Shown: positions 1 through 56,602, numbered from the stretch's first letter. The stretch: DNA of 56,603 nucleotides from an uncultured Gammaproteobacteria bacterium (GCA_964614975.1 CAZTOA010000002.1:1-56603); one strand, 5' to 3'. A program made the numbers and translations. Notes: generated by a model from the sequence alone, not told the origin.

Positions 1-1517
1 CAGCGAATAACAGATGGCTTATTGACGTCGCATGCTGGATCTGGAGATTCCTGGACATCGTCACCGTCATATGGGGATACAGGGTTTGGAATTGGGTCGT
101 TTATTGTGTCCAGCTTATGGAATTGATCGTCTTTAAGCTTATACCAAGACGTATTGGCATATGACCAACCACCAGGAGCTGGAGTTGGACCTTCACCAAG
201 ATTGCAACTACACGCAATAACAATTTCTTTTTTACACGTTGCACCATTGCGACATGTCAGGGTAATTTCTTTTACTCCTGCGTTAGGGAACTGTACGCAA
301 CTTACATCTGGGTCTTCAACGCCTCCAGACGATCCGTAATCAAAGCTATATCCTGGCTCCGAATCAACTGTAATTGCGTTACAATTTGTACCCCAACATG
401 CACAACCTCCTTGTGGACCATTAACATCAAAGTCGCACCCAGGTGGGCAGCCTTCAATAGTCTTTGGTGCAACACAATTTGGACAACAGATTTCTCCTTC
501 GCATGCACAAGCAGCGGATGGGGGATCAGGTTCTGTGGCTCCGCCAAAGCTATAAGAGTATCCAACGCATTGATTACCGTCTAATGTATCAATCCTAACG
601 GTTGGATAAGGTGTGACTGCCATCTTATCGCAGTCGCCTGTTGTGCATTGAAAACAAGCCGGCTTTTCTCCACCGAAAATAGGGCCCTCAGCTTTTCCTG
701 GTTGGCCATCTGTGTGCTCAGGACATGAAAAGGTAAGACCTTGTGCCAAGGCTGCTGCACAACTACAGGCATTCGCACACCAACAGGCCCCATCGTCTAT
801 TGGGCAAGTAGAAGGAGCTCCTGGATTTACGCATTTCGATGTTCCATTTCCCATATCTCTACAGGTAGTTCCAGATGGGCATGCATTCGCATTAGCTGTA
901 CAATCGTCAAAACAACCTGGAACGGGAGTAGGCGATGGTGTTGGAGAGGTGATATTTCCTGGTGGACTAGATGGCTCTCCTGGATCTCCCGGAGCATCGC
1001 ATACACAATCTTGTTCTGTAGGACAAAGCGGATTAACGCATTTATTTATCGTAGCTGCTCCTACATAGGAATCACATTGCCCACCCATAAATTCACTTCC
1101 CGAACATGCAACTGGCGTTGAATTTTGATTTGCGCTGGCGCAAACTTTTCCAGAAGCTGAGCCAATGTTATAGCATCCACATGAAGAGCCCACGCATGCT
1201 TCATGTGAACAACCGCAGTCTGAGGCGTTCGGACAGCTTGTATTAACACATTTGGTAATTTTTGGATTTGGTCCCATTACTTCGCATAGTCCACCAGCAG
1301 CATCTTGACCAGTACAATTTACAAGGGTTGCAGTAAGACCTTGTGGACATGTCTTTCCTAAGGCCGAGCCGAGATTTTGACAACCACAAACTGCACCGCT
1401 ACAGCTTTGCCCTGAATTTGCATAGCCATCACCAAGCTGAGCTTTTACGCCCGAGGGAGCTACTAAAAATAGGAGTCCAAAGATAGATAGAGTGAGAAAA
1501 AACACTAACTTTCTCAT
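1..1517 (-). CDS. Secreted cysteine-rich modular protein, N-terminal ~505 aa (ORF runs off the left edge; absent from the supplied ORF track)
   Basis: ATG at 1517 (-) followed by signal-peptide-like MRKLVFFLTLSIFGLLFLVAPSGVKA. I checked every codon of this frame down to position 3 and found no stop. Repeated modules end in KCVN(T/P)xCPxxxDCxC, with a PSSPPGNITSPTPSPTPVP linker. Confidence 0.6.
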   Translation of the reverse strand, partial: MRKLVFFLTLSIFGLLFLVAPSGVKAQLGDGYANSGQSCSGAVCGCQNLGSALGKTCPQGLTATLVNCTGQDAAGGLCEVMGPNPKITKCVNTSCPNASDCGCSHEACVGSSCGCYNIGSASGKVCASANQNSTPVACSGSEFMGGQCDSYVGAATINKCVNPLCPTEQDCVCDAPGDPGEPSSPPGNITSPTPSPTPVPGCFDDCTANANACPSGTTCRDMGNGTSKCVNPGAPSTCPIDDGACWCANACSCAAALAQGLTFSCPEHTDGQPGKAEGPIFGGEKPACFQCTTGDCDKMAVTPYPTVRIDTLDGNQCVGYSYSFGGATEPDPPSAACACEGEICCPNCVAPKTIEGCPPGCDFDVNGPQGGCACWGTNCNAITVDSEPGYSFDYGSSGGVEDPDVSCVQFPNAGVKEITLTCRNGATCKKEIVIACSCNLGEGPTPAPGGWSYANTSWYKLKDDQFHKLDTINDPIPNPVSPYDGDDVQESPDPACDVNKPSVIR

Positions 1518-1567
1518 GATATGGTTACAGCTTAGAGTTTTTTAGGAGAAAAATCAAGAAGTGATAC

Positions 1568-3703
1568 TTAGTTTTGGTTGGCGTTAGCTACCGCACCTCG
1601 CATAGCACCGGCAAATACTGGTTCTCTCAAAAGATCGGTCGTATCTCGTGCACCCCATGCACCTGGTATAGCAACTCGAAGTCGCGCATTTTGTTCACGT
1701 GCTGCGATTGCGGCGGCTGAAAGAGCAACGCCAGCATTGTAGTCACCATTTGGATAGATAGGCATCATTACTGCACCATAATCGACAGGATACGTTCCTA
1801 GATCAGCATCGATCTGTGCCGCGAGTTGGTCTACAGGCAAGCCATTAGCTGCGGCAGGATAATTAAATATTGGTAAAACAAGCAATGTTCGTGATCTTGG
1901 TATAGTTGCAGAAATTTCAGCTACGATTCTACGCGCATTGTCTCTCAATGCTTGATTATCTCCAAGTACAAGCCCATGTTGTTCAATTCCAACCAATCTA
2001 TCGGCTGGAGTATCTCTTAATACTCTTGCCATTACATCTTGTACGTGTGAAGTAGGCCCTGAACTCCAATGTGCTTCCAAAGGGAAGTAGTCCATATAAT
2101 TTCGGCGCCGTCTACTACTACTATTCACGTCTGATGCTGGGTTTGCAACTGCACCAATGTTCAGAGCTGGGAAAGTATCAATACCCCAACGTTGAGCAAG
2201 AACTCCATATGCTTCACGTGCAAATGCTTTTATTGGATTATCTAGCTCTGGTTCACCATAATCATTTTGACGTCTGCCTACCCACTCAGGAAATCCAGCT
2301 CGTGAATTCACATATGATGGCATGTAAAGAGACAATCCGTTTTGTTGAGCTATTCGTACAAGCAAATCAGCTTGACTTAATCTTGGGGCATTGTCTGAAT
2401 AAGCTCTACCTGGGTTAAATGCTATTCCTCGTAAATATTGTTCGCTAAATAATTGCCAGGCTTCTGCACTTCTCCAGAAGTCGGTATCCGCTATGGCAAC
2501 TTCCGGGCCTCCAAATGCTTCTACATATTGACGTACATAGGCAAGTTCAGGATAGAGTTCCACAAGTTGTTGTGGATTTTCGCTTGCTAATCGTACAATA
2601 TCATCAATTCTCATTCCCCTTGTATTGGGTGGAAGATTAATGCCAATATGGCGTTCATGATTTGAACGTGCAGCCTCAGGTTGATTAGGATTGACGTCAA
2701 CTACCTCTATACAAGCACCTTCTGGTGTTTCAACTTCGACATAATGTTGTTCACCGGTTGAGCTAGTTCTTGATAAAAGCGTGACTGTTGCAGCTCTTGC
2801 AGCCAATGTTTCTGCAGTATCACCAGTTTCATCATCACAAAGCTCTTGACCATTTACTTCCCATCGTCCATCATTTGCATCGTATGCAACTTCGGTTCTC
2901 AAATCTTGTGATTGACCATCTGGTAATGTTGCAAAAGCTCCCGCGAGTGTAAGTGTTGGATCACCGTCGAGATATAAGTTTTTTGAACCATCTATTGCGG
3001 GAATAAGATTAGGTTGTGCGACTACTTTTAATTCAACACCAGCAGGTTCATTACTCAAAGCAAAACCCGTACCAGCGAGGACATCTTGTTGTGGTTGTCC
3101 ATTAAGCCAATCAACATCGTCGGAGCCTCCAGTTGTCATGTTGACTCCATCGCCTTGCGGGGAAGTCAATACTGGTTCTCTATGCATAGCATCTGGGTTG
3201 AATACAGGGGGCACTGCTGTTACTGTTGGACTAGGTGGAGGTAAATCAGTTGGACTTGGTGGTGGATCGGTTGGGTCTGGACTCGGTGGCAAGTCTGTTG
3301 AGCTAGGTGTTGCCGAAGGCACTTCAGTAGGAGGCAATGATGTAGCAGTTGGCAGATTGGAATCTCGAGCTTGTACGGCAAGTGGAAGATAATTGTAATA
3401 TCTCTTTGGTGTATCGGTTTGACCTGAAGAAACGGTAGATTCAGGCACAGGTGTACTATTAGGAGCAGCTGTAGCGTCGTCGTCAAGTTGTTGAGGTTGT
3501 GCGTCACCCTGTAAAGCTATTCCATATGTTGGCATAGCATCTAATCTAAGATGGTGGCCAGAATCAGTGTTAGGATCAACATCCTGAGCTCTAACTGCGC
3601 CTGATTCACCTTGACTTGCTAGAACTAGTGCCACCGTAGCAAGACCGACCGTAACAGCCGATGCATGTCTTCTATCTGGTGTGTATCCGTTTTCAGCTGA
3701 CAT
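1568..3703 (-). CDS. Secreted/membrane-anchored hypothetical protein with long Pro/Thr/Ser/Asp linker
   Basis: 711-aa ORF. N-terminal hydrophobic segment AVTVGLATVALVLASQG. Low-complexity DLPPSPDPTDPPPSPTDLPPPSPT. TATAGA box 5 nt upstream of the ATG. No catalytic motif I can name. Confidence 0.55.
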   Translation of the reverse strand: MSAENGYTPDRRHASAVTVGLATVALVLASQGESGAVRAQDVDPNTDSGHHLRLDAMPTYGIALQGDAQPQQLDDDATAAPNSTPVPESTVSSGQTDTPKRYYNYLPLAVQARDSNLPTATSLPPTEVPSATPSSTDLPPSPDPTDPPPSPTDLPPPSPTVTAVPPVFNPDAMHREPVLTSPQGDGVNMTTGGSDDVDWLNGQPQQDVLAGTGFALSNEPAGVELKVVAQPNLIPAIDGSKNLYLDGDPTLTLAGAFATLPDGQSQDLRTEVAYDANDGRWEVNGQELCDDETGDTAETLAARAATVTLLSRTSSTGEQHYVEVETPEGACIEVVDVNPNQPEAARSNHERHIGINLPPNTRGMRIDDIVRLASENPQQLVELYPELAYVRQYVEAFGGPEVAIADTDFWRSAEAWQLFSEQYLRGIAFNPGRAYSDNAPRLSQADLLVRIAQQNGLSLYMPSYVNSRAGFPEWVGRRQNDYGEPELDNPIKAFAREAYGVLAQRWGIDTFPALNIGAVANPASDVNSSSRRRRNYMDYFPLEAHWSSGPTSHVQDVMARVLRDTPADRLVGIEQHGLVLGDNQALRDNARRIVAEISATIPRSRTLLVLPIFNYPAAANGLPVDQLAAQIDADLGTYPVDYGAVMMPIYPNGDYNAGVALSAAAIAAREQNARLRVAIPGAWGARDTTDLLREPVFAGAMRGAVANANQN

Positions 3704-43309: not shown

Positions 43310-44896
43310 ATGAATAGGAGTGAAGTTCCTACAGCAAGAGGATTGTATCCAAGTGATCGAGAGCCAATTGTCCAGGCCCATCACAACGTGCCTGATTTAA
43401 TTGGAAGTTTATCCCAAGGACAAATTGCAGATGTAAATAAGCACTATAGTTATCGTGCATTTCATCAACTCATGGCTTCGAGGGAGGGTGATATAGTAGC
43501 TATACCATCAAACCCCGAGAACTTTAAAAAAATGCAACCTCTGCTTTCGTGGGCAGAGCGTAATCTCGGCGTTCAATATGTCATGACATCGATGAGGCCT
43601 GGTGAGCTTCCCTTCTCTGATGACGAAAATTTGGTTGTAGTTCCATATTATTCATCCCCAAACTTTGGTGATAAACCTATGTGGGGACTTGATCCGGAGG
43701 TGGCGGCTAACCTAAAAAATAAAATTAGCTTTGCTAATACTATTCTGGAGATGGGTGATGACTTAGCCGAGGTCTCATTTGAAAATGGAGTTCATCCCAC
43801 AACAGTGCTTCCGTATTTAACTTTTAACGATCCTGCAGATGCCAGACAAATAATAGCGCAGAGCATGGAAGCATCAAGGCGAATGTATGCGGGATTCTCA
43901 GTCTTCGATGCAAGTATTGCTGGTTATCCGTTAGGTGTCGTGGTTCAACAGTCGGGTGGCGATGGTGGGTATGGAACAGTCATTATGCATGAAGGTGAGG
44001 GTGGGGAATGGATTATTCAAGCGGAAAAAAAGAAGAAACAATATGCATCTCGTGAAGAGGCTGAAGAAGCGTTGGTTGAGCTTGTGGCAATATCAGGTGG
44101 AGAATATAAAGTTACACGATATGTCGACGTGGCTACAAGTCCAAGTGTTGGAGTGTATGTTAATGGTGCAGACACGGTATCCTTGCCTGTAACGGTGCAA
44201 TTTTTTGAGAATGGAAGCTGTATCGGCGGCGCATCACAGAACTCAGTAGATCCTTCGGGATTTAAAGCGGTAAAAGAAAAAGAACCATATATGCGGGCGT
44301 TGGCAGGTCGCATTGCCGAAAATGCTCTATATGTCAAGACAGAATCAGCACACATAGGTATTGATTTTATGATTGCTGGAGAAAAAGAAATGCGACTCGT
44401 TGAACTCATCAAGAAGCACCCTGAACTTGCGATTTACTCAAAAAACTGTATGGAGGTTGGTATAGCTGAATGTAATCCACGTATGACATCACTTTCGCTT
44501 TCTGTGTGGCCACTACTTCTGTACGACAATAAATTATCAGGTCGTAATAGGGATGACATAACATATGATGATATTCATGCATTTTATGGCGGTGAAAATG
44601 CACAAGGTCAATCAGGCGGATTCGCAGTTTGGGATTACATAGCAGCACCTCATGGAGTCACTACAGAATCCGAGCTCATTGCATGGATTGATCGGGTAAA
44701 TGACACCTTCTCTGCATCGGGTATATTTATTGTCCCAAGGCTCCCGCTTGAGTATGATCCTAAAAATGATTGTCTTTCAACCTCTGTGGTACTTGGAATG
44801 CGACCTAACACATCATCTGAATCTCATGCTGAATTTCAGCGTATAATTAGTGAGTTAAGTAGCGCTTGTAGCTTACAATCATTGATGGAAGAGTAA
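43310..44896 (+). CDS. ATP-grasp-family ligase (unknown substrate)
   Basis: 528 aa. GVVVQQSGGDGGYG glycine-rich loop and IGIDFMI...VGIAECNPRM (E-x-N-x-R Mg/ATP motif) typical of ATP-grasp folds. Confidence 0.65.
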   Translation: MNRSEVPTARGLYPSDREPIVQAHHNVPDLIGSLSQGQIADVNKHYSYRAFHQLMASREGDIVAIPSNPENFKKMQPLLSWAERNLGVQYVMTSMRPGELPFSDDENLVVVPYYSSPNFGDKPMWGLDPEVAANLKNKISFANTILEMGDDLAEVSFENGVHPTTVLPYLTFNDPADARQIIAQSMEASRRMYAGFSVFDASIAGYPLGVVVQQSGGDGGYGTVIMHEGEGGEWIIQAEKKKKQYASREEAEEALVELVAISGGEYKVTRYVDVATSPSVGVYVNGADTVSLPVTVQFFENGSCIGGASQNSVDPSGFKAVKEKEPYMRALAGRIAENALYVKTESAHIGIDFMIAGEKEMRLVELIKKHPELAIYSKNCMEVGIAECNPRMTSLSLSVWPLLLYDNKLSGRNRDDITYDDIHAFYGGENAQGQSGGFAVWDYIAAPHGVTTESELIAWIDRVNDTFSASGIFIVPRLPLEYDPKNDCLSTSVVLGMRPNTSSESHAEFQRIISELSSACSLQSLMEE

Positions 44897-45654
44897 TGAA
44901 CATAACGGTTATTCAATTCCGCACTGATCAATCAGGACCACACGAGGTCAAATGCTTATTTAACTCGTGTGGACTTCCATATCAATCCTTCACATTTATT
45001 AATGCTCTTAATGACAGCTTTCTTAATAATGTGAATAAGTTAAAAAAAAATACGGACGTGTGGATTCTTACTGGATGGGGAGAAGCAGGATATGAGAGTC
45101 AGGATGAAGATGGCAAAAAAAAACTGACAATTGTCAAGCAAAGATTGTACCCGCTTATTCGCGAGCTATATTCACAGAAAGTCTCATTAATAGGTATCTG
45201 TTTCGGCTTTCAAATTATGGTCGATGCACTTGGCGGCTCTTTGGCTATTGAACCTAAGATGTCTGAAGGAGGTATATTTGATGTGTTTCTTACAGAAAAG
45301 GGCGCTAAGGAAAAAATATTTGCGGGTATGGAAACACCATTCAAGGCTGTGCTTGGCCATAAAACATCCGTTGTATCATTGCCAAAGGGCGTAGTGAGGC
45401 TAGCATACTCAAAAAAATGCCCTATACAAGCTGCGAAGTTTGGCAAGTATTCATATGGTTTTACTTTTCATCCTGAGCTCATACACAAGGATATTATTGA
45501 GAGAACAAGTCTTTATGATGGGTATATATCTGATCAGAGTACCATGGAGTATAGCGAAATAGGAACGGCAAAAATATTACAGAATCTATTTAGCGAATAT
45601 TTGATAAATAACAACTCAATGAAAGGGTCTACTTTCTCCGCACTAAGCATATAG
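44896..45654 (+). CDS. Class I glutamine amidotransferase-like protein
   Basis: LIGICFGFQ nucleophile elbow and FTFHPE His-Glu pair. The start overlaps the ATP-grasp stop by 1 nt. Confidence 0.8.
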   Translation: MNITVIQFRTDQSGPHEVKCLFNSCGLPYQSFTFINALNDSFLNNVNKLKKNTDVWILTGWGEAGYESQDEDGKKKLTIVKQRLYPLIRELYSQKVSLIGICFGFQIMVDALGGSLAIEPKMSEGGIFDVFLTEKGAKEKIFAGMETPFKAVLGHKTSVVSLPKGVVRLAYSKKCPIQAAKFGKYSYGFTFHPELIHKDIIERTSLYDGYISDQSTMEYSEIGTAKILQNLFSEYLINNNSMKGSTFSALSI

Positions 45655-47724
45655 TTAATTTGAAGGGTTGGGTGTTGGTGTTACCTGAGTTGGTTCTACA
45701 GTTGGGCTCGGTGTTACTTTTATTTCACTCTCCGGTCCTGCATTTTCAGGCAATTGAATCGCTGGTGAGAGCTGTGGATTTGGCTCTTTTGGAAGATCTA
45801 ATTGATCTCCTTGTCGAATGCCGGCTGATTCAGTCGCTGCTTTTTTCTTTGTGTCATCAGCTGCTGCTTTAAATGCTTCAAGATTTTCTTTTGCCTTTTT
45901 GTAATCTTCAGATTTATTATCGAGCACTTTTAATACGCTTTCTAGACTTGTTACCGCTCTATCGATTTTTCCATTCTGATATTGTGCCCATGCAAGATTA
46001 TAGAAAGCATTTGGCCAATCTGGTTTTAATCCAGCAGACTGTTCGAAAAGCTTTTCAGCCTCATCATAATCTTTCAAAGAATAATACACACCACCAAGAT
46101 TTAATCTCAAAAGTGGATTATTTGGATCCTGAAGTATCGCTCGGCGGTATGATGCAATAGTCCATGATTCTGCACCTTGGGCCACATTAATAATGTTTCT
46201 GTAAATTACTGCAAGGTTATTCCAGTAACCAACTTTATTTGGGTTGAGCTGTACAGGAACTTTAGCTTCGCTAATTGCCAACTGAATGAAGCGGGCAATT
46301 TCTTCTCTATCTTTGTCGGTAAGATCCTTTTTCTTTGATATATTATTTGCTAGGAGAAGGTTTACTTGGCTGAACTGTACGTGGTAGCGCTCGATGAAAG
46401 GATTTGTTTGCATTGCCTTTACCAAACCGTTATATACTGCTTGACCATTATTATTTCGGATTCCATTTATTGAGCTTTTGAAATAGACTTCTGCTGCATA
46501 GGCACGATATCCAAGAAATCCAAAGCCACCAACAAGCCCCAATATTATTAATGCAATAGCAATATACAAAAGAGGCATAGAGCGGAGATCCACAGAAACT
46601 TTTTCTTCATTGTACTCATGGGCTTTTAGCGCCAGACCAACACACAGCATTATTGTGAGGAGTAGTGATATGAATGATGCTGGAAGTATTAGCGATACTA
46701 ATCCAAGATACATCGCCCAGGCGGCATATATTTTGCTTTCGTGATCTTTCTCTGCAAACAAACCATATACTTCGCGAATAATATATACCCAGAGTAAGAG
46801 GAAGGCCAGCAGTCCCAGAATTCCAGTTTCAGTCCAAATTTGTAACACCATCGAACTTGCTAAATTAAAGTTTGTCTGCCAAAATTCGGAGGCATTGTAA
46901 CTGCGGGGCTTTGCAGCAGTAAATGCTGCTTCATAATTATCAATGCCGACACCAACTACAGCGGTTCTGAGTGTCTTCATGCTTTCCACACCAGCTACCC
47001 AAGATGATTCAATCGGAGGAAGTTGAAGGGCTTGTTGACCTTCTGGGGGAAAAAAACCACGATAACCAACGAGAGTTACCGCTACCAGACCGACGAGCAT
47101 TCCTACTATAGAGATGTATGATGGTTTCTTTGACAGCATGATATTTTGTATAACTCGCATCAATGAAACAATGCTTAGTAAGCCTGTCATGATAAGGACG
47201 TCTAATACATTGCCGATAGGAGAGAAGCGTATATTTTTTAAGAAATCGAGTTCTGTTGAAAGTTGTGCACTGTTAAGTGGGCCGAACCAAAATACTACAG
47301 TTATACAAGCGGCAAAGAGCATTCCAACTTCAAAGAAACGCATTGCGCGATTTTCGTCACCTTTTTTTGTTAATGAATTTACAAGAACATAGTACAAAGC
47401 CACGCATGTAAGTATTGGTGCAAGGCCCCAAGGCACAGTTGTAAGAGCTTGTACTTTATTTGTTGATGAAAAAAGAACAGCAATAATTTGAGAGATGCTA
47501 AAGAAAAGTAAAACTCTGTCGAATGGAGTTTTAAGTAATTTTATATGTTTATTTAATAATAGAGAAAGAGCACTCAGTACAAGTGAAATAAGGATGACTA
47601 CGAGAAGAAGATAAAATTTCTGTGTTAAAAAATACTCTTGTGTGAAAGGAAGGAAAAACCAAGGAACCAGTGCTAGGGTTATATAAAGTAAATTTGTGCG
47701 TAATTTATGGAGGAAATCATTCAT
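45655..47724 (-). CDS. O-antigen-ligase-like polytopic membrane protein with C-terminal TPR repeats
   Basis: About 10 TM helices, then TPR-like repeats (AFYNLAWAQYQNGKIDRA etc.) and a PT tail. ATG at 47724 with TGGTACAAT 5 nt upstream. The ORF track extends to the TTG at 47790. Confidence 0.65.
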   Translation of the reverse strand: MNDFLHKLRTNLLYITLALVPWFFLPFTQEYFLTQKFYLLLVVILISLVLSALSLLLNKHIKLLKTPFDRVLLFFSISQIIAVLFSSTNKVQALTTVPWGLAPILTCVALYYVLVNSLTKKGDENRAMRFFEVGMLFAACITVVFWFGPLNSAQLSTELDFLKNIRFSPIGNVLDVLIMTGLLSIVSLMRVIQNIMLSKKPSYISIVGMLVGLVAVTLVGYRGFFPPEGQQALQLPPIESSWVAGVESMKTLRTAVVGVGIDNYEAAFTAAKPRSYNASEFWQTNFNLASSMVLQIWTETGILGLLAFLLLWVYIIREVYGLFAEKDHESKIYAAWAMYLGLVSLILPASFISLLLTIMLCVGLALKAHEYNEEKVSVDLRSMPLLYIAIALIILGLVGGFGFLGYRAYAAEVYFKSSINGIRNNNGQAVYNGLVKAMQTNPFIERYHVQFSQVNLLLANNISKKKDLTDKDREEIARFIQLAISEAKVPVQLNPNKVGYWNNLAVIYRNIINVAQGAESWTIASYRRAILQDPNNPLLRLNLGGVYYSLKDYDEAEKLFEQSAGLKPDWPNAFYNLAWAQYQNGKIDRAVTSLESVLKVLDNKSEDYKKAKENLEAFKAAADDTKKKAATESAGIRQGDQLDLPKEPNPQLSPAIQLPENAGPESEIKVTPSPTVEPTQVTPTPNPSN

Positions 47725-47819
47725 ATTAGATTGTACCAGTTTACGTTTAATGTAATTTCTTGTCAACAGAAAATTGGGGAGTATTGACAAGACCTTTCTT
47801 TGTCGATTAGTATGTATGT

Positions 47820-48581
47820 ATGCAACAATACATGGGTGGAGTAATCACCGCTGTCCTCACAATTATTGTTTTTCTATTAACGACTCTGCCATCAACGCGC
47901 CCTTTTATTAATTCACTTTTTCTCTTATATATAGGTGTTGCTTTTTTTGGCTCACTTTACTTTCCGGTAGTACGAAAAAGTATTAAAAGCAAAACTGTTT
48001 TGTCAAGTTATATGCTGATTATTTTTGTCGCAATGCTCTTTTGGGTTGGCGTGACGGGCTGGTTCTTCTCACCATTTTTCTATATTCTTTATCTGCTGGC
48101 GATAATGCTCTCATTTGTTCTTTCACCTTTTTCAACGCTTCTTTTTGTTATGACATTAGTAGGGCTGTTTGCTCCAAATATTGGATCAATCGATATTGTC
48201 TTGGATCTCATTACGATATTATCTCTCTTTTCAATTGTTCCGATAACGCTCTTCCTTCAAAAGGAGTATCTATACTTACGACAGCAAGAAAAGAAAGTTC
48301 TTATTCTTGAAGAAGAAACCCAGGATTTACACAATAAGGTTGATGAAGTTTTGCGTAATCGTGTCATAAAATTTGCAGTAAATCTGCGTCAACCTGTTAA
48401 TGATATGAAGCAGATGGCGATTTTCGCACAGACCGATACAAAGGCGAAAATCGCAAAAGCATTAAAGAAAATTGAAAAGCTCGGTGATGAATCTCTCGGA
48501 ATTATTGAAGATTTTGAGGTGTCAGTAACAGGTAAAAAACTCATCCATACATCTTCTGAAAAAAAAGGCAAGATAAGTTAA
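47820..48581 (+). CDS. Polytopic membrane protein with degenerate histidine-kinase DHp-like tail (no His, no ATPase domain)
   Basis: Five or six TM helices, then a coiled coil. KFAVNLRQPVNDMKQ parallels the H-box FVSVASHELRTPMTAIK of the 54154 kinase, but with Asn at the His position. Confidence 0.45.
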   Translation: MQQYMGGVITAVLTIIVFLLTTLPSTRPFINSLFLLYIGVAFFGSLYFPVVRKSIKSKTVLSSYMLIIFVAMLFWVGVTGWFFSPFFYILYLLAIMLSFVLSPFSTLLFVMTLVGLFAPNIGSIDIVLDLITILSLFSIVPITLFLQKEYLYLRQQEKKVLILEEETQDLHNKVDEVLRNRVIKFAVNLRQPVNDMKQMAIFAQTDTKAKIAKALKKIEKLGDESLGIIEDFEVSVTGKKLIHTSSEKKGKIS

Positions 48582-48594: not shown

Positions 48595-48960
48595 TTACTT
48601 TAAGTATTCTTTAAGCTTTTCTACAAGTTGATCAGGTGTCATATCTGCTTTAATGAGATATGCTTTTGCACCTAAATCAAGAGCTTCTTTCATTACAGGG
48701 TCGTGGGCTAGGTTTGTGAGAAGCACAACTTTTGAAGCGTTAGACTTTGATTTTTCTGAAAGTTCGCGAAGTACTTCGACACCATCCATTTTTGGCATCA
48801 TGATGTCGAGTAAAATTAAGTCATATGATCCGGCGATGATTTTATCGTAACCATCTTTTCCATCCACTGCCGTATCAACATCAAATCCACTATCTTTAAG
48901 AATTTCTTCGTAGAGGTCTCGAATATACTCATCGTCATCAACCACGATCAGCTTGTGCAT
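48595..48960 (-). CDS. Stand-alone response-regulator receiver domain (CheY-like)
   Basis: VVDDDE, LILLDIMMPKMDG and a conserved K near the C-terminus. TTGACA-17-TAGACT promoter 9 nt upstream. Confidence 0.9.
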   Translation of the reverse strand: MHKLIVVDDDEYIRDLYEEILKDSGFDVDTAVDGKDGYDKIIAGSYDLILLDIMMPKMDGVEVLRELSEKSKSNASKVVLLTNLAHDPVMKEALDLGAKAYLIKADMTPDQLVEKLKEYLK

Positions 48961-49073
48961 AATAATACAAGTCTATGCCAAGGTATAATAAATGTCAACA
49001 AGCGAGTTGAATATAGAGTAGGGGTACTGTATAGTTGATTACTTATAATATACATTAACAAGCTATTCGTTTT

Positions 49074-50753
49074 ATGAAAGCAGGCACAGATGTTTATAGA
49101 AACCTTTCTCTCATTGCTATTGATAGTAAATTATCAAAAAAACCTCAAAGTGTTGTTATAGATGGATCTTCATTAGAGCTCGAACATATCCTTTCAGTCG
49201 GCCGTGAAAATACGGACGTACAATTTACTGCCGATCCCGATGTCCTCAAGAGAGTACAGACAACTTATGAAGCAATGATGACTGACGTGCAAAATGGAGT
49301 GCCTATTTACGGGTGTAATACTGGATATGGAGCACAAGCTTCTCATGTGGTAAATAAAGGTTTGAAAAAGAAGCGTGTTGAAATTGCAAAGAAAATCTCG
49401 GAAGGTATTACGCATATTGATGTTGCAGTTGGACCAGAATTTAAGAAAGAAATTGTCCGTGGTGCAATGTTAATACGTATTAACATGTTGTTGAATGGGG
49501 TAAGTGCGGTCAAACTAGATGACCTGAATATATTTCGACAAATGCTGAATAAGCAAGTTACTCCTATTATAAATATGTATGGAGGTATTGGTGCCTCGGG
49601 TGACTTGGCACATAATGCTCGTGTTCTGAATGCTGCTCGACGAATAAAAGGAACCCTGGCAAGTAATGCAAAAGGGCAGGTTTTAGAAGCACAAAAGGCA
49701 ATGATAGAGGCTGGTATTAAACAGCTGACACTGGACCCAAAAGCAGGTTTAGGGCTTGTGAACGGCGATAATTTTTCGACATCTGTTGCCACATTCCTTG
49801 CAACAGATACTATTCGTGCGTTGCTATTGATGCATGTTCTTGCAGCCATGGTTATAGAGGTATTGAGGGGAACAGATAGATCATTCCATCCGCTGGTTGC
49901 CCATGTTCGTCCTCACGAAGGTCAGAGAGAAACAGCAGATATGATGCGTGATCTTTTAGAAGGAAGCAAACTTGCATATCAAGAAATGCGGGGCCATAAA
50001 AAAAGACCCACTGGAGTAAAGGTTCAAGATGGATATAGCTTGAGAGGCATTGCCCAATACTTAGGTGTCGATGTGGCAAAGATGAAAGGAATCCTAGATA
50101 CAATCGAGATAAATGCGAATTCTGTTTCTGACAACCCGCTATGGGTTTTGCCTGAATATGCGACCAAGGGTGAAAAGCCATATCAGTGGGTAAGTGGAGC
50201 CAATTTTATTGCAATGCATATGGTTGATGTTCTTGATGATACACGTAAAGTCATGACGCATATAGTAAAACTATGTGATCGTCATGTTGCGCGATTGGTG
50301 AACACGCATGAAAGTAATGGATTGCCGCCTAATCTTTCTGATAAAGCAGCGATTACCCAATGTGCTTTTAAGGGTGTTCAGATTCAATCGGGCATGCTTG
50401 ATGTGTATTCCTCACTTTTATCCGTGCCAGTCAGTACGTTTTTTGGCGTGCATGAGGAAGGAAACCAGGATATAACGTCGCATGCATTAACATCAGGAAT
50501 GATTGGTATGGAAAATTTACGTCTGACACATTATGCGCTCGCGCAAACGCTTATGGCTGTGTGCCAAGCAGTAGATTTGCGCGGTGGAGCAGATAAGCTT
50601 TCTGAGAAAACCCGTCCAGTATATAGATTTGTGCGATCGAAGATCGCATATGTAAAAGAAGAGCGCCCATTACACAATGAAATTGAAGTATTGTATGAAG
50701 CTATCGCTTCTGGTGAGCTGAATACTTTATTACGTGAGCAGACATTTTCATAA
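49074..50753 (+). CDS. MIO-dependent aromatic amino acid ammonia-lyase/aminomutase (HAL/PAL/TAL family)
   Basis: GGIGASGDLAHNA contains the Ala-Ser-Gly triad that forms the MIO cofactor. NTGYGAQA and QDGYSLRG family motifs. Confidence 0.85.
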   Translation: MKAGTDVYRNLSLIAIDSKLSKKPQSVVIDGSSLELEHILSVGRENTDVQFTADPDVLKRVQTTYEAMMTDVQNGVPIYGCNTGYGAQASHVVNKGLKKKRVEIAKKISEGITHIDVAVGPEFKKEIVRGAMLIRINMLLNGVSAVKLDDLNIFRQMLNKQVTPIINMYGGIGASGDLAHNARVLNAARRIKGTLASNAKGQVLEAQKAMIEAGIKQLTLDPKAGLGLVNGDNFSTSVATFLATDTIRALLLMHVLAAMVIEVLRGTDRSFHPLVAHVRPHEGQRETADMMRDLLEGSKLAYQEMRGHKKRPTGVKVQDGYSLRGIAQYLGVDVAKMKGILDTIEINANSVSDNPLWVLPEYATKGEKPYQWVSGANFIAMHMVDVLDDTRKVMTHIVKLCDRHVARLVNTHESNGLPPNLSDKAAITQCAFKGVQIQSGMLDVYSSLLSVPVSTFFGVHEEGNQDITSHALTSGMIGMENLRLTHYALAQTLMAVCQAVDLRGGADKLSEKTRPVYRFVRSKIAYVKEERPLHNEIEVLYEAIASGELNTLLREQTFS

Positions 50754-52117
50754 TGGTGTCTAAAAATCTACAAAACTATCTTAATAATAAAACTTCTTCA
50801 TTGAAGCCACTTGATCTTTTTCATGAGGCTTCACAACGGATTCCTGCATACAAAGATTTTTTGAAGAAAAACAAATTTTCACCAAAAGAAGTCAAGACAA
50901 TGAAGGATTTTGTGAAGATTCCCCTTATGACAAAGGAGAATTATATTCTTGCATATGATTATAAAAGTAGAACTTGGGATGGAAATACGAGCAACGAGCA
51001 TATGATTTCTACAAGCTCTGGAACGTTGGGAGAGCCCGTTTTCTGGCCTCGAGATATTCAAACCGTTGTCGAAGGCGCGATGTATCATGAAGTAATTTTC
51101 GATCAGTGCTTTAATATGAAAAAAAAGCAGACATTATTTATCAATGGTTTTGCTTTAGGAAATTGGATTGCGGGAACGTTTACTTCTGAATGTTGTTTTC
51201 TTGTTTCACTAAAAGGTTTTCCATTAACAGCGGCGACTCCCGGATATAGTTCTGAAGAAATAATAAAACTTTTAAAAGAATTATCACCACAATATGCAAT
51301 GACTGTTATTACCGGACATGCACCGTTCTTAAAACAGCTTGTCGAAGAAGCCACAAAAGAGGGTGTTGATTTTAAAAAAATAGATGTTCGTTTGTTAGGA
51401 ACGGGGCAGGCGATTACAGAAAATTGGCGTACATATGTGCTTTCTATATTAAAGAAGAAAGATTACACGCATTCTGTAGTTAATTTATATGGTTCTGCTG
51501 ATGCCGCACTCATGGCCTATGAAAGCCCCGCATCAATTTTATTAAGAAAAAATTTAGCTGACAATCCAAAAAAAGCTCGAAGTTTATTTAATGATGAGCG
51601 GCTTCCATCAATATATAGTTATGATCCTAGAATTGTCCACTTTGAGTCAGTTGATGGTGAATTATGCATTACAAAGTATTCAAGCATACCTCTTATTCGC
51701 TACAACATGCATGATACTGGAGGCATTTTGGAAAATAATATGTTATATCTTTACGGACGTGAGAAATTCATGGTTAAGATATATGGGGCAAACATCTACA
51801 CCGAGCATGTTCAACATGCATTAAACCATAAAGATTTACAACCTCATCTTACAGGTCGTTTTGCGATGGAGATGATATATGACGACGCCCAGAATCCGCA
51901 GCTTACTTGTCGCGTCGAGCTAAATATTTCTATTCCCGCCGACGCGATTCTTGAAAAAAAAGTTAAGGACACATTTATTAATGAAGTGCGAAAGATGAAT
52001 AGCGAATACAACGATGCGCTTTCTCGTATGGGCGAGCGAGCCCATCCAGTAATTATTTTGCATGAATTTGGGCATAAAAAATATTTTCCTGTAGGAAAAG
52101 TAAAGAAAACCGCTTAA
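50753..52117 (+). CDS. PaaK/coenzyme-F390-synthetase-like adenylate-forming ligase
   Basis: STSSGTLGEPVFWP matches the SSGTTGKP AMP-binding loop of the phenylacetate-CoA ligase clade. 1-nt start/stop overlap with the lyase gene. Confidence 0.7.
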   Translation: MVSKNLQNYLNNKTSSLKPLDLFHEASQRIPAYKDFLKKNKFSPKEVKTMKDFVKIPLMTKENYILAYDYKSRTWDGNTSNEHMISTSSGTLGEPVFWPRDIQTVVEGAMYHEVIFDQCFNMKKKQTLFINGFALGNWIAGTFTSECCFLVSLKGFPLTAATPGYSSEEIIKLLKELSPQYAMTVITGHAPFLKQLVEEATKEGVDFKKIDVRLLGTGQAITENWRTYVLSILKKKDYTHSVVNLYGSADAALMAYESPASILLRKNLADNPKKARSLFNDERLPSIYSYDPRIVHFESVDGELCITKYSSIPLIRYNMHDTGGILENNMLYLYGREKFMVKIYGANIYTEHVQHALNHKDLQPHLTGRFAMEMIYDDAQNPQLTCRVELNISIPADAILEKKVKDTFINEVRKMNSEYNDALSRMGERAHPVIILHEFGHKKYFPVGKVKKTA

Positions 52118-52140
52118 TTTACTGTGATATAATTGCTCCC

Positions 52141-53142
52141 ATGAGAGCAAAGCTCATTAAGGAACTCTTCAAAATTCGCAATCCGCACATCGCTCCCACT
52201 GCAATAGATCTCAAAAAACTAGAAGCAAAAGTTACGTCCGTTTCAAAAACGAAATCTTCTATTCATGGGCTTTCAAAAAAAGCAATATTTGAACTCACAA
52301 CTGCGAGGAACCGCAATTTGATAAAGCCCGATCAGCAATATGATCTCCATACATTTCCTGTCGGTTTTTTTGGCATGAGTGTTGGTAGCCATGCCGCATT
52401 GTCATGGATGCTTATTTCTAGAGCTAGTATTATTAAAATTGTTGATCCAGATACCATTGATGCCTCAAACCTCAATAGACTTCGTTTTGGATGGAGTGCT
52501 GTAGGTAAATATAAAATTGATGTGGTTAAAGAACAATTAAAAGATATGTATCCTGATGGCGTTATTATTGCTTCAAAAAAAACTGATCTTGCATCTGTTA
52601 AAGAAATATTTGATAAAAATACTCCAATAGAAGCTGTGGTCGACGAAATTGATAATTTTCCATCAAAAATTTTGCTTCGCAAACTAGCGAGAGAGCGCAA
52701 AATACCTCTTGTTTCTGCAGCCGATGTAGGCGATAACATTATGGTCGATATCGAGCGTTACGATACTGATCCGAATTATCCATTTTTCCACGGACGTGAA
52801 AAAAACTTAGAAAACCTTGAAATTACAAAACTAAGTGAACCTGAATTGAAGCGTCTTATTATTAAACTTGTCGGCTTTGAACATAATAGTGAACAAATGA
52901 TTAATTCTCTTTTCGGCATGGGAGCATCAATACCAACATGGCCGCAGCTCGGAACTACTGCAAGCATTGCTGGGGGAGTTATAGCGACTATTTTAAAGAA
53001 AATCAGATTGGGTGAAGCTGTTAAGAGTGGTAGATATTACGTATCACTTGATGATATTTTTGTAAGCGATTTTTCTTCATCTGTGAATATAGATCGCAGA
53101 GAAAGAAAGGTTTCACACATTAAAAAAATGTTAAAGATATGA
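52141..53142 (+). CDS. ThiF/MoeB/E1-like adenylyltransferase-family protein
   Basis: FGMSVGSHAA...IKIVDPDTIDASNLNRL matches the ThiF nucleotide-binding fold. TGTGATATAAT lies 7 nt upstream of the ATG. Confidence 0.7.
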   Translation: MRAKLIKELFKIRNPHIAPTAIDLKKLEAKVTSVSKTKSSIHGLSKKAIFELTTARNRNLIKPDQQYDLHTFPVGFFGMSVGSHAALSWMLISRASIIKIVDPDTIDASNLNRLRFGWSAVGKYKIDVVKEQLKDMYPDGVIIASKKTDLASVKEIFDKNTPIEAVVDEIDNFPSKILLRKLARERKIPLVSAADVGDNIMVDIERYDTDPNYPFFHGREKNLENLEITKLSEPELKRLIIKLVGFEHNSEQMINSLFGMGASIPTWPQLGTTASIAGGVIATILKKIRLGEAVKSGRYYVSLDDIFVSDFSSSVNIDRRERKVSHIKKMLKI

Positions 53143-54146
53143 CAACGCAAGATAATTACAAAGCATGGGAACCAGACAGAAAGAAAGGAACGATTGAAGA
53201 TATTGTTGCATACGGACTCTTAGCTCCATCAAGCCATAACAGCCAGCCTTGGAAATTTAAAGTTGAAGGAAACATAATAAAAATAGTGCCAGATTATGCA
53301 CGTAGCCTTCCATATAGCGATAGATTTAATCGTGAACTTTTCATATCGCTTGGTTGTGTATGGGCAAATTGTGAGGTTGCTGCGAAACATTTTGGATATT
53401 CGGTAAAAAGTGAGGTATTACCGGAAGACGAAATTGAAGACGTAGCGATAAAAATTACATGCACAAAGGGAAAGAGCGGAAAAAATGATGAACTTTTCAC
53501 AGCAATAACTGAAAGAAAAACGAATAGATTTCCACATACAGATGAAAAATTATCGAAATCAATAATTTCTGCGTGCTCCGGACAAAAATTTGATAAAAAT
53601 ATGTCGGTGCACATCATTACTAACTCAGAACAAATAAAAGCTGCTGCTGATATAGCTGCTGATGTTGCTGGATTTGTATTCGCCGATCCTGTATTTAAAA
53701 AAGAATTGCAAGAATGGCTGCGTCCAGTTTCTACAAAAGAAAAAGACGGGATTGCACTCTTTGATGCCGGTGTACCAGCAAAAATTACTGAGATGATTGT
53801 CAAAAATATTACGCAGGCCGATCCGAAAGAAGAAGCTGAACGTGATAGGAAAACTGTGCAATCGTCTACAGGGCTTTTTGTATTAACTGCGCCCGACGAT
53901 TCAAAAGAATCCTGGCTACGTGCCGGGCGTGCTGTTGAATACTGCTGGCTTACCTTAACAAATTTCGGTATTTCTGTAGCACCTATGGGGGGTTTTGTTG
54001 AGCACCCAATAGCAAATCAACAACTTATGAAACTACTAAAAACCAAAAAACACCCACTGTTTTTTGCTCGTATTGGATATGCTAAAGAACCCACACACGT
54101 CAGTCCTCGCAGACCTCTTGAAGATGTCCTGAAAAGAAGCTTATAA
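53139..54146 (+). CDS. Acg-type double-domain nitroreductase-family FMN protein
   Basis: APSSHNSQPWKF motif. Length (~335 aa) fits the fused two-lobe Acg/Tpa1-like nitroreductases. ATGA overlap with the ThiF-like gene. Confidence 0.75.
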   Translation: MTTQDNYKAWEPDRKKGTIEDIVAYGLLAPSSHNSQPWKFKVEGNIIKIVPDYARSLPYSDRFNRELFISLGCVWANCEVAAKHFGYSVKSEVLPEDEIEDVAIKITCTKGKSGKNDELFTAITERKTNRFPHTDEKLSKSIISACSGQKFDKNMSVHIITNSEQIKAAADIAADVAGFVFADPVFKKELQEWLRPVSTKEKDGIALFDAGVPAKITEMIVKNITQADPKEEAERDRKTVQSSTGLFVLTAPDDSKESWLRAGRAVEYCWLTLTNFGISVAPMGGFVEHPIANQQLMKLLKTKKHPLFFARIGYAKEPTHVSPRRPLEDVLKRSL

Positions 54147-54153: not shown

Positions 54154-56424
54154 ATGTTCAGTATTCTTACGATTGTCCTAGAGTTTATTGCGTTTGTGGG
54201 CATTGTCTTATTGGGAGTTTCAACCTTGCAAACAAGCCCAAAAAGCATTACAAATCGTTTGTTTTTTCTGTTCTCATCAACACTTGCGTTATATATTTGG
54301 GCAAACTATTTATCTGCAATTCAGAGCGTTGATTCCCTTACATTATTTTGGATACGTGTTGTCATGGGGCTTGCTCTGTTGATTAATATATTCTATTTTC
54401 TTCTAGTCTTTGAATTTCCAAATATTAAAAGATCATTAGCAAAGAATTGGTATTACCTCATTGGACTTTGTACATTGCCATTATTATTTTTAAGTCAAAC
54501 AGCTGCTATTTTCAGTTCTGTTAATCCAGGCACTAATCAACCTGTTCCAGGAAAATTAATTCCTTTATTCCTTATTCATACACTCGTATTTTTAGTAGGA
54601 GGAGTCATCATTCTGTTTAAGAAGTTTAAGGTTGCCAAGGGTGTCATTCGTATTCAATTACGATATCTCATTTTTGCTACCGCATTTATGTTTGTATCCA
54701 TACTTTTAACGAACGTATTTTTTGTGTTGGTTTTGAAGACGACTGCATTTATAGGGCTACTGCCAATATATACAACAATATTCGTTGGATTAATTAGTTA
54801 TGCGATTCTTCGGCATAAATTTTTAGATATTCGTCTTATTGTTGCGCGATCAATTGCGTACTCCGTTGTAGTACTCATCCTCGTGCTTTCATATTCATCG
54901 GGAATTTTTCTTGTGGGTACATATGTAATTGGTTATGAAATCAGGCCAATTAACATGATCGTGTCAGTATTCTTCGCTTTTATTATCGCGATCTCATACC
55001 ATCCGCTTTTGCGCAATATTGAACATATTACTGATAAGCTCTTTTTCAAAGATCGCTATGATTCGCGATTTCTTCTTGCTAAGTTAGGCCGTATTATGGC
55101 TTCAACGCTTGAATTAAAAGAAATCGCTCAGATGATTCTTAAAACTTTGTTAAAAGATATGCGTATCTCGAAAGGTTATCTTCTTTTGATGCGTGAAAAC
55201 CAAATAATCTGGTCATATGGTCAAAGTTATAATCATGCGCTTGCTCATAATTTTGTTGGTGATTACATAAGCTTTTTAATTGAATCTGCTCACAAAAAAA
55301 GAGAAGATAATATTCTTCTTTTCGAAGAACTTCAGGATGGTGCGGAAAAAGATATTATGCGCGAATACGGCATGAGTATTGCATTTCCGCTTCTGGTAGA
55401 AGGAAAACCGATTGGCCTTATGTGGTTTGGATCAAAGCTTTCTGGTGAAACATATTCGACTGAAGACATGCATCTTTTTAAAATTCTTGCACCAGAAGTA
55501 GCAGTAGCAGTAAAAAATTCGCTGCAATATGACGAAATAAAACAATTCAACGTTACTCTTCAAGAAAAAATAAAACACGCGACATACAATCTACGCTCTG
55601 CAAATCATAAGCTTAAAGAGCTCGACAAAATGAAAGATGATTTTGTATCTGTCGCTTCCCATGAATTGCGAACACCAATGACGGCTATTAAATCTTACTT
55701 GTGGTTAGCATTGGCGGGGAAGGGTGGAAAGCTTTCAGTAAAGCAAGAGTATTATCTTCAAAGATCGTACAACTCTGTGGACCGATTAATTAAGCTGGTT
55801 AATGACATGCTTAATATTTCTCGTATCGAATCTGGAAGAATTTTTGTGAGTCTTGCAAAAACCGATATTTTAGCACTGATTAATGAAGTCATTGAGGAAA
55901 TAAAACCACGAATCGATGAGCTTAAATTAAACATAAAAGTTGATTTTAGTAAGGACGGATCACTTTCGAAGGAAGACGTAAAAGAACTTATCGCTGATCC
56001 AGATAAAGTAAAAGAGGTTGTACTTAACTTAATTGGAAATTCTCTTAAGTTTACTGAAGAAGGAGGCCTTATTTCAATATTCTTTACGAAAGAAGGCAAT
56101 AAAATAGTTACGAACGTGAAGGATACGGGTAGGGGAATTGATGCGAAAGATATGGGCACACTCTTCACAAAGTTCGGAATGGTTCAAGGATCATATGCAA
56201 CAAATAAAAAAGCATCTGGTACTGGATTAGGGCTTTATATTAGTAAGTCCATTATTGAGTTACATGATGGAGAAATGAAGGCAAGTTCAGAAGGAATAGG
56301 GAAAGGAGCGACATTCTCATTTTCGTTACCGATATATTCTCCAAAGCTTTTTAAGGACATGAATGATGAGTTGAATACTGGGAAGCGTGATCAAACTATC
56401 GGGATAATTCACACCACACTATAA
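54154..56424 (+). CDS. Sensor histidine kinase with polytopic N-terminal domain and GAF-like region
   Basis: About 8 TM helices, H-box SHELRTPMT, N-box NLIGNSLKF and G-boxes DTGRGI / GTGLGL. TATAAT 6 nt from the ATG. Confidence 0.9.
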   Translation: MFSILTIVLEFIAFVGIVLLGVSTLQTSPKSITNRLFFLFSSTLALYIWANYLSAIQSVDSLTLFWIRVVMGLALLINIFYFLLVFEFPNIKRSLAKNWYYLIGLCTLPLLFLSQTAAIFSSVNPGTNQPVPGKLIPLFLIHTLVFLVGGVIILFKKFKVAKGVIRIQLRYLIFATAFMFVSILLTNVFFVLVLKTTAFIGLLPIYTTIFVGLISYAILRHKFLDIRLIVARSIAYSVVVLILVLSYSSGIFLVGTYVIGYEIRPINMIVSVFFAFIIAISYHPLLRNIEHITDKLFFKDRYDSRFLLAKLGRIMASTLELKEIAQMILKTLLKDMRISKGYLLLMRENQIIWSYGQSYNHALAHNFVGDYISFLIESAHKKREDNILLFEELQDGAEKDIMREYGMSIAFPLLVEGKPIGLMWFGSKLSGETYSTEDMHLFKILAPEVAVAVKNSLQYDEIKQFNVTLQEKIKHATYNLRSANHKLKELDKMKDDFVSVASHELRTPMTAIKSYLWLALAGKGGKLSVKQEYYLQRSYNSVDRLIKLVNDMLNISRIESGRIFVSLAKTDILALINEVIEEIKPRIDELKLNIKVDFSKDGSLSKEDVKELIADPDKVKEVVLNLIGNSLKFTEEGGLISIFFTKEGNKIVTNVKDTGRGIDAKDMGTLFTKFGMVQGSYATNKKASGTGLGLYISKSIIELHDGEMKASSEGIGKGATFSFSLPIYSPKLFKDMNDELNTGKRDQTIGIIHTTL

Positions 56425-56428
56425 CTTT

Positions 56429-56602
56429 TTATTGACAGCTATTAGAACATGTACCTTCACTATAGAGTTGTAATGGAGAATTGCATGTTCCTCCAGAGGT
56501 ACAATTTGCAAAGTCTCCACAGTTATTACATATAGATCCTTGAAAACAGAATTTAGGTGCAGGATCAGATGGGCATGATGGATATGGAGTCGGACTAGGA
56601 CC
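56429..56602 (-). CDS. C-terminal 57 aa of a cysteine-rich secreted protein (gene enters from the right edge)
   Basis: Hand translation: ...GPSPTPYPSCPSDPAPKFCFQGSICNNCGDFANCTSGGTCNSPLQLYSEGTCSNSCQ*. Stop at 56429-56431. Absent from the ORF track. Confidence 0.4.
   Translation of the reverse strand, partial: GPSPTPYPSCPSDPAPKFCFQGSICNNCGDFANCTSGGTCNSPLQLYSEGTCSNSCQ

Follow-up and report, generated by a model that had tools for sequence, protein, structure and literature searches.

What do four tightly packed enzyme genes, flanked by two-component genes, make in a genome of about one megabase? The question is raised by positions 49,074 to 54,146 of a 56,603-nt contig (GCA_964614975.1, CAZTOA010000002.1:1-56603, deposited as an uncultured Gammaproteobacteria bacterium), which was analysed at its full length and is called the window here. 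The window makes up all of contig C2 in a genome of 1.01 Mb (97% complete), which the names of its homologues place in the Microgenomates within the Patescibacteria (Candidate Phyla Radiation, CPR). The genes encode a 4-methylideneimidazole-5-one (MIO)-dependent enzyme, a PaaK-fold ligase, a ThiF/E1-like enzyme and an Acg-type flavoprotein, and an earlier note made from the sequence alone had described them as an orphan four-gene operon. Comparison across genomes showed that these genes are the enzyme half of a larger unit, which consists of a receiver, in many loci an amino-acid-deaminating enzyme, the ligase, the ThiF enzyme, in some loci the flavoprotein, and a seven-transmembrane (7TM) sensor kinase. 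The reading we favour, to which we give an even chance, is that this conserved Patescibacteria module yields a small molecule of the oxazolone type, derived from an amino acid, and links it to a phosphorelay of its own.

Calling of open reading frames (ORFs) returned the four genes at exactly the coordinates given in the earlier note, all on the plus strand: the MIO-dependent aromatic amino acid lyase/aminomutase (49074-50753), the PaaK-fold adenylate-forming ligase of a Patescibacteria-centred family (50753-52117), the ThiF/E1-like ATP-dependent enzyme of the oxazolone-cyclase (TrzS/Rv1355c) type (52141-53142), and the Acg-type flavin mononucleotide (FMN) flavoprotein of the flavin-dependent oxidase subgroup of the nitroreductase superfamily (53139-54146). 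Profile and structure matches agree with the four family names that had been proposed. The first junction reads TAATG, a 1-nt overlap at 50753, and the third is an ATGA overlap of the ThiF and flavoprotein genes at 53139-53142, both as described. The 23-nt gap between the ligase and ThiF genes (TTTACTGTGATATAATTGCTCCC) does contain the TATAAT that had been pointed out, but this hexamer carries no weight as a promoter; promoter-like matches in the region numbered 26 against 31.7 ± 5.8 expected from shuffles, and since they are no commoner than in shuffled sequence, the hexamer is uninformative and an internal promoter was rejected. Upstream, a stand-alone response-regulator receiver of 121 aa without an output domain (48595-48960, minus strand; PF00072, 89 bits) diverges from the enzyme genes across a 113-nt intergenic region (48961-49073) presumed to hold the promoters of both, with weakly assigned promoter-like sites at 49007-49035 (plus strand) and 48998-48970 (minus strand). 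Downstream, a sensor histidine kinase (54154-56424, plus strand) with the Pfam-matched architecture HisKA_7TM-GAF-like-HisKA (His503)-HATPase_c begins 7 nt past the flavoprotein gene. The receiver and the large sensor kinase are thus as real as the earlier note had supposed.

The extent of the unit was judged from a pattern scan of one genome per species, in which 328 loci encode a relative of the ligase (485 ligase homologues). The best 80 of the 328, four further loci and the window were analysed, a sample that is not unbiased and in which contig ends conceal partners in several loci. MIO orthologues in relatives of the window genome keep their order with the ligase, ThiF, kinase and receiver genes, and the same gene order recurs in Gottesmanbacteria and on two further contigs, one of the Roizmanbacteria type and the other a 1.3-Mb JGI contig, so that the genome-wide co-occurrence search suggested in the earlier note gave a positive answer. 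Clusters of similar ORFs covered 84 loci for the ligase, 63 for the kinase/receiver, 62 for ThiF, 37 for the flavoprotein and 34 for the MIO enzyme. Ligase, ThiF and kinase genes were found together in about 60 of the 85 loci across the Patescibacteria, and no other genes accompany the ligase and ThiF enzyme as constantly, phylum-wide, as those of the kinase and receiver. The operon is therefore neither an orphan nor merely bracketed by two-component genes: the receiver and 7TM kinase belong to the unit, and their linkage to the enzymes is conserved across the phylum. A ligase of this family is present in 45 of 400 evenly sampled genomes of the phylum, in many families and mostly in single copy. 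At the 233 same-strand junctions within modules the median gap was 6 nt, with overlaps at 73, and from this spacing only, co-transcription of the module genes is inferred. No characterised cluster carries the exact four-gene set, in agreement with the earlier note, and full-text searching of the literature gave no description of the module in Patescibacteria/CPR.

Loci without partners were mostly truncated by contig ends or belonged to a "solo" clade from cyanobacteria, Chloroflexia and one actinomycete, in which the neighbours are unrelated; as these contexts gave no lead, they were set aside as a clue to function. The partner-less homologues L042, L047, L049, L050, L053, L055, L062, L064, L069, L070, L078, L087 and L088 form this one clade, which is nested within Patescibacteria diversity on a midpoint-rooted tree and may reflect transfer out of the CPR together with a different function. 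The homologue at L077, from a contig that bears the label Gracilibacteria, differs hardly at all from that of the cyanobacterium Hydrococcus (L069), and its placement in the cyanobacterial solo clade makes contamination of the bin likely. In Microgenomates bacterium OLB23, of the same genus as the window genome (G002; L013/L018), the alignments of the MIO, ligase, flavoprotein and kinase genes are each split into two to four segments that lie in different reading frames, a sign of either a low-quality consensus or a module copy in decay.

The chemistry of the module is best approached through the ThiF enzyme and the flavoprotein. The ThiF enzyme matched PF00899 (69.7 bits) and the Rv1355c family model NF005901 (E = 1.3e-48, 165.8 bits, model positions 78-339), with the next ThiF family at 1.9e-12, and the flavoprotein matched the same Rv1355c model at positions 368-652 (E = 1.7e-31). 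Because the two proteins match consecutive halves of this model, the pair is, on profile evidence, related to a characterised oxazolone synthetase that acts on small molecules, here split into two proteins. The flavoprotein also scored 256.5 bits against NF047509 (Acg-family FMN oxidoreductase), above the cut-off of 199 bits, and its nearest solved structure is Acg (2YMV); the nearest solved relatives of the ThiF enzyme are the TcdA cyclodehydratases, not protein-activating E1s. Residues G78, S80-V81-G82, D102, D104, N112-R113, K125 and D171 (DEIDN motif) are conserved in at least 90% of 61 module ThiF proteins, so that the nucleotide-binding loop, Arg finger and catalytic Asp171 are retained, and 36 flavoproteins conserve an APSxxNxQPW motif and Arg126/Arg130.

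TrzS (Rv1355c) is a fused ThiF-like cyclase and flavin-dependent oxidase that converts N-acyl tryptophan to an oxazolone, first cyclising the substrate at the expense of ATP and then desaturating the product with O2; oxazolones are prone to hydrolysis and alcoholysis (PMC12856293). OxzB performs the same conversion on N-acyl tyrosine (bioRxiv 10.1101/2020.06.11.147165), and TyzB and TyzC perform it as separate proteins (PMC10404671); for all three systems these activities have been demonstrated biochemically. A 2025 review names OxzB as the only ThiF-like enzyme known to have a small-molecule substrate (PMC12596934). The module shares its ThiF-like cyclase and Acg-type oxidase with OxzA/OxzB of Pseudoalteromonas rubra, TyzA/B/C, and TrzA/TrzS (Rv1356c/Rv1355c) of Mycobacterium and Rhodococcus, and like these oxazolone clusters it is operon-like with overlapping genes and has methyltransferases as occasional partners; the clusters for stieleriacines and for thalassotalic and kyonggic acids are related N-acyl dehydrotyrosine systems. 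The module differs from TrzS in that cyclase and oxidase adjoin rather than being fused, and from Oxz, Tyz and Trz in that the MIO enzyme and PaaK-fold ligase replace the N-acyl amino acid synthase (NAS)-type N-acyltransferase, that an aryl-acrylate would take the place of the fatty acyl group and would need neither acyl-coenzyme A (acyl-CoA) nor acyl carrier protein, and that the host is a Patescibacteria genome of about 1 Mb. It further differs from the described oxazolone clusters in that the flavoprotein is often absent and in its integral 7TM kinase and stand-alone receiver, seen in none of them. Small-molecule methyltransferases are inserted in some modules (PF00891-type in L016/L037, others in L033 and L036), which fits a decorated small molecule and parallels the stieleriacine clusters.

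The flavoprotein, present in 37 of 84 loci, is a dispensable member of the module, and since it is often absent, the conserved core chemistry ends at the ThiF step. In G033 (L014:4229-5297) the flavoprotein gene is broken, with one in-frame TGA and several ORFs, while the other module genes are intact; this fits its being dispensable. In a Magasanikbacteria locus (L084:10416-12380, plus strand) a ThiF-like enzyme is fused to a C-terminal alpha/beta-hydrolase domain, which could open or transfer an activated (oxazolone) intermediate.

If a ThiF enzyme closes the ring, an N-acyl amino acid has to be supplied. No NAS-type N-acyltransferase was found, either as PF13444 in the window genome or among the conserved neighbours in the 85 loci, the TyzA/TrzA-specific models not having been searched; the ligase is the invariant partner of the module in place of an acyltransferase. 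This ligase had no Pfam match and matched FlxY, PaaK and F390 synthetase weakly in NCBIfam; the PaaK equivalog TIGR02155 gave 35 bits, below its cut-off of 646. Its AlphaFold (AF2) model, with a predicted local distance difference test score of 90.9, superposes on PaaK1/BT_0428 with a template modelling score of about 0.7, and the P-loop S88-S89-G90 and the C-terminal K452 are invariant in the family. Among the Foldseek neighbours of the model are NatL2, AjiA1 and ClxA, PaaK-family enzymes of benzoxazole pathways that are reported to activate aryl acids as adenylates and then transfer them directly, with no CoA involved, to another small molecule (PMC7204872, PMC12519233). These enzymes share the PaaK fold with the module ligase (Foldseek E of about 1e-17) and provide a precedent for direct ester or amide transfer; they differ from it in sequence (about 15% identity), in having an amidohydrolase rather than ThiF as partner, and in their substrates. 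CoaE was not found in the window genome. The module ligase is probably CoA-independent, and it is proposed to be an amide (N-acyl amino acid) ligase.

The MIO enzyme matched PF00221 (361 bits) and carries the Ala-Ser-Gly triad in the sequence GGIGASGDL. Its best solved relatives are cyanobacterial phenylalanine ammonia-lyases (PALs), and F107-L108 of AvPAL aligns with His114-Ile115, at which H-[V/I/T] is kept in 29 orthologous MIO loci. In this family, His-Leu at the selectivity site marks tyrosine-specific lyases and mutases, Phe-Leu marks PALs and Ser-His marks histidine ammonia-lyases (HALs), with His89 of RsTAL as the switch. The module enzyme is predicted to be tyrosine-specific, with a site of the tyrosine ammonia-lyase/tyrosine aminomutase (TAL/TAM) type. 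It scored below every NCBIfam equivalog cut-off, the TAL and TAM models included (261 bits with the hutH model against a cut-off of 539), and its relatives carry automatic names only. An ordinary HutH, which the earlier note had named as part of a finding that would refute it, is not what was found: no urocanase (PF01175) was detected in the window genome, which holds this single MIO gene, and the His114-Ile115 site is of the tyrosine and not the histidine type, so a Hut pathway was rejected. RsTAL, SgTAM, FlxA/FlxY of flexirubin synthesis and the TAL/pCL pair of photoactive yellow protein (PYP) resemble the module in the MIO triad, the His at the switch and an adjoining acid-activating ligase. 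The module enzyme differs from RsTAL and SgTAM in forming a separate Microgenomates-centred subfamily with its own NGDNFS and HEExNQD motifs, and the module differs from FlxA/FlxY and TAL/pCL in having no polyketide or PYP partner and a ligase of the PaaK type, not the 4-coumarate-CoA ligase (4CL) type.

The MIO enzyme was rightly counted as part of the set, but it proved to be one of several interchangeable amino-acid-deaminating partners. By lineage, the gene upstream of the ligase encodes a Microgenomates-type MIO enzyme in 29 loci, an ELFV amino-acid dehydrogenase in 12, a class I/II aminotransferase in 7 and a canonical HAL-like MIO enzyme (Ser-His, TSG triad) in 5; each of these partners removes the alpha-amino group of an amino acid. 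Partner type clusters strongly on a maximum-likelihood tree of the ligase, where 27 of the 28 rows of one clade are MIO-linked, and no shuffle of the labels gave as few changes. As kin share labels, this pattern amounts to consistency and not to proof.

The signalling half of the module bears the marks of a two-component system: PF00512, PF02518 and PF00072 matched, His503 of the kinase is invariant, and D9, D52 and K104 of the receiver are conserved. Receiver orthologues adjoin the module in 47 loci and are nearly all stand-alone proteins of 121-143 aa with the conserved Asp and Lys residues; because they stand alone and have no DNA-binding domain, transcriptional output through the receiver is unlikely. 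The kinase gene follows the enzyme genes in about 58 of the 85 loci and encodes either a long form with a GAF-like middle domain, as in the window, or a short form of 520-560 aa. An alignment of 36 long kinases showed conserved polar residues in the membrane domain and no position with Cys in at least 40% of the sequences, and for want of a conserved Cys a covalent PYP- or bilin-style chromophore loses support. When kinase-core distances were controlled for, the distances of the sensor half correlated with those of the ligase and ThiF enzyme (partial r = 0.42 and 0.50), while the converse values were 0.16 and 0.14; this co-variation is suggestive only. The arrangement recalls AgrBDCA and CqsA/CqsS, in which biosynthetic genes for a small labile signal likewise accompany a multi-pass membrane histidine kinase and a response regulator. 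The module differs from them in showing no sequence relationship, in its chemistry, in a regulator without a DNA-binding domain and in a receptor role that is proposed from gene context.

A possible output is the type IV pilus. Pilin-, PilB- or PilC-like genes were present in the fetched flanks of 22 of 64 module loci against 1 of 18 solo loci, and pilin-like starts numbered about 0.6 per 10 kb of module flanks against 0.06 per 10 kb of the window's own genome as a single-genome background. A PilB-like gene lies 4-49 nt past the receiver gene in L034 and in L015/L020, the latter two being one locus. In a Yanofskybacteria locus (L060:10959-12704, plus strand) a receiver-PilB fusion (PF00072 and PF00437) directly follows the module's own receiver, a Rosetta-stone hint that the phosphorelay may target the pilus motor. 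At the right end of the window, the 3' end of a pilin-like gene (56419-56601, minus strand), convergent with the kinase gene and cut by the contig end, is 80% identical to the last 41 residues of the N_methyl-motif protein that comes after the kinase in the sister genome. The N-terminal 160 residues, with the pilin motif GFTLVE, are encoded elsewhere in the window genome, where contig C66 ends; C66:3322-3854 continues the gene, so that the two contigs abut, and a Gly-rich (Gly/Pro-rich) run probably broke the assembly between them. Upstream of the pilin start, C66 encodes a 921-aa protein of unknown function (535-3300).

Put together, homology and synteny, on which all the pathway chemistry rests, suggest the following route for the module of the window. 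The MIO enzyme would deaminate tyrosine to p-coumarate, and the PaaK-fold ligase would activate p-coumarate as the adenylate and, with no CoA involved, join it to an amino acid through the latter's amino group, giving an N-acyl amino acid and so replacing the N-acyltransferase of the known oxazolone pathways. The ThiF enzyme would then adenylate the carboxylate of the N-acyl amino acid and close the 5(4H)-oxazolone ring, and the Acg-type flavoprotein, as an accessory member where present, would introduce a C-alpha/C-beta double bond with O2. The product, or its hydrolysed dehydro-amino-acid form, would be a ligand or functional partner of the co-transcribed 7TM kinase, which would phosphorylate the stand-alone receiver, and the probable target of the receiver would be a protein, with the type IV pilus machinery as the most plausible candidate. 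A more specific form of this proposal, in which the 7TM kinase has as its cognate ligand an electrophilic aryl-acyl oxazolone made by the cell itself and the CheY-like receiver acts directly on the PilB motor, is possible but somewhat unlikely as a whole.

Several points weigh against the oxazolone-phosphorelay proposal. Every reaction step, the ligand and the phosphotransfer are predictions, for each member of the module. The scores of the ThiF enzyme and flavoprotein (166 + 109 bits) fall below the 476-bit equivalog cut-off of the TrzS model NF005901, a cut-off set for the fused protein. Sequence cannot separate a lyase from an aminomutase at the first step, and the amide-forming role of the ligase fills a gap in the route, so that CoA or another thioester, or an ester, could be formed in its place. 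About 40% of the MIO-type loci are without the flavoprotein, and an Acg-type gene was found nowhere in the 96%-complete genome G060; the conserved product may be a saturated and very labile azlactone, a product derived from it, or something else, and it is here, in the absence of the flavoprotein, that a straightforward "arylidene oxazolone" picture is most vulnerable. On the signalling side, sensing of the product by the kinase derives from synteny only, two confounders, common ancestry and a kinase core with less dynamic range, affect the co-variation of sensor half and enzymes, and pilus genes adjoin only about one third of the loci, with a background density taken from one genome.

Among the alternatives, the one that survives best is that the product of the enzymes is a secreted effector, a pigment, a UV screen or an antibiotic-like small molecule, and that the two-component system is not its receptor but responds to an external cue, for instance contact with a host, and is simply co-regulated or co-inherited with the pathway. 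Synteny cannot tell a receptor from a co-regulated partner, and other points favour such a molecule: arylidene oxazolones are reactive and absorb at 360-400 nm, stieleriacine-type N-acyl dehydrotyrosines affect the biofilms of other species, and secondary metabolites typically show lineage-specific tailoring of the kind seen here in the methyltransferases and in the presence or absence of the flavoprotein. However, the receiver has no DNA-binding output and so cannot alone regulate the operon; the kinase gene appears from its spacing to be co-transcribed and translationally coupled (7-nt gap; median 6 nt); the sensor half follows enzyme divergence more than the kinase core does; and no exporter occurs among the conserved neighbour families of the analysed loci. 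We regard this alternative as unlikely.

A second alternative is that the ThiF enzyme and ligase act on a protein or peptide, by MccB/PaaA-type activation in a ribosomally synthesised and post-translationally modified peptide (RiPP) pathway or by ubiquitin-like activation, for example in modifying the pilin or the kinase. Most characterised ThiF-like enzymes do act on proteins, peptides or tRNA (PMC12596934), there are weak E1 matches to PaaA and to Cap2-type E1-E2 proteins, and pilin genes are frequent neighbours; the oxazolone synthetase family is nevertheless the best match by about 36 orders of magnitude. The earlier note had compared the E1-like protein and nitroreductase with azole-forming peptide machinery while remarking that YcaO and an obvious precursor ORF were missing. 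The remark stands, and the apt precedent is instead the oxazolone synthetases OxzB, TyzB/TyzC and TrzS; the YcaO/RiPP reading was rejected because the genome has no YcaO (PF02624), the module has no space for a precursor and the flavoprotein is of the Acg type, not the SagB type. No conserved small ORF of at least 70 aa was found among the module loci, and shorter ones are argued against by the near absence of intergenic space. Amino-acid-deaminating enzymes and small-molecule methyltransferases accompany the module, and the kinase has no conserved Cys, leaving a protein substrate improbable. Anti-phage defence by a Cap2-like E1 was also considered and rejected, as the similarity (≤30 bits) is that of E1 enzymes in general.

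A catabolic or salvage route under two-component control, running from tyrosine to coumarate, coumaroyl-CoA and onwards, is very improbable: a TAL and an aryl-acid ligase do start coumarate activation elsewhere, as the FlxA/FlxY-type matches recall, but no downstream hydratase, lyase or beta-oxidation gene occurs in any analysed locus, neither urocanase nor CoaE was found in the genome, and the constant partners are the ThiF enzyme and kinase rather than catabolic enzymes, the MIO enzyme being replaceable by a dehydrogenase or aminotransferase. Least probable of all is a photoreceptor whose chromophore is made by the enzymes and bound covalently to the GAF domain of the kinase, as with TAL and ligase for PYP; although a TAL-like enzyme and acid-activating ligase do stand beside a GAF-containing kinase and arylidene oxazolones are coloured and electrophilic, this candidate was rejected because no position has Cys in even 40% of the 36 long kinases, many module kinases (the 520-560-aa forms) lack the GAF-like region and many modules lack the MIO enzyme.

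Oxazolone formation by a ThiF enzyme and flavoprotein was discovered only in 2020-2025, and the role of the products is stated to be unknown. On our reading, the module would keep the oxazolone-synthetase chemistry of that work but obtain the N-acyl amino acid by another route, and it adds an integral sensor kinase and receiver. If the oxazolone-phosphorelay proposal is true, it would add a new N-acyl amino acid supply, in which an ATP-dependent ligase is fed by an amino-acid-deaminating enzyme, a new acyl class for oxazolone chemistry, and a new host group, the Patescibacteria, which are thought to hold almost no specialised metabolism; it would also offer a candidate receptor and output for oxazolones in the 7TM kinase, stand-alone receiver and type IV pili. 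Pili play a central part in how Patescibacteria live as epibionts, and for this reason a small-molecule and phosphorelay unit beside pilus genes would be a concrete handle on partner or kin sensing in these organisms. Should the more specific reading with the oxazolone as kinase ligand and PilB as target also be true, the module would be a chemically new autoinducer or contact-signalling circuit for attachment by ultra-small episymbionts, and would give oxazolones their first receptor and physiological role.

Three further features noted in the window lie to the left of the receiver gene, and an Rfam scan of the window gave no match. The 253-aa membrane protein (47820-48581), described in the earlier note as pseudo-kinase-like, had no family match and aligned with the kinase at E = 0.2 in BLASTP, so this label was dropped; the protein is conserved in the sister genome only. 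At 43310-45654 (plus strand) the gene for a 528-aa protein without family matches overlaps a class I glutamine amidotransferase-like gene; a homologue of the amidotransferase is also found near the sister-genome module (L013:17035-17736) and not in the module of other lineages. A 711-aa TPR protein (45655-47790, minus strand) adjoins the receiver, and in G060 the same position beside the receiver is taken by a 672-aa protein (L012:5574-7592) with a TMEM260/PMT-like O-mannosyltransferase domain and TPR repeats; if the two are related, a glycosyltransferase neighbour could recur across families.

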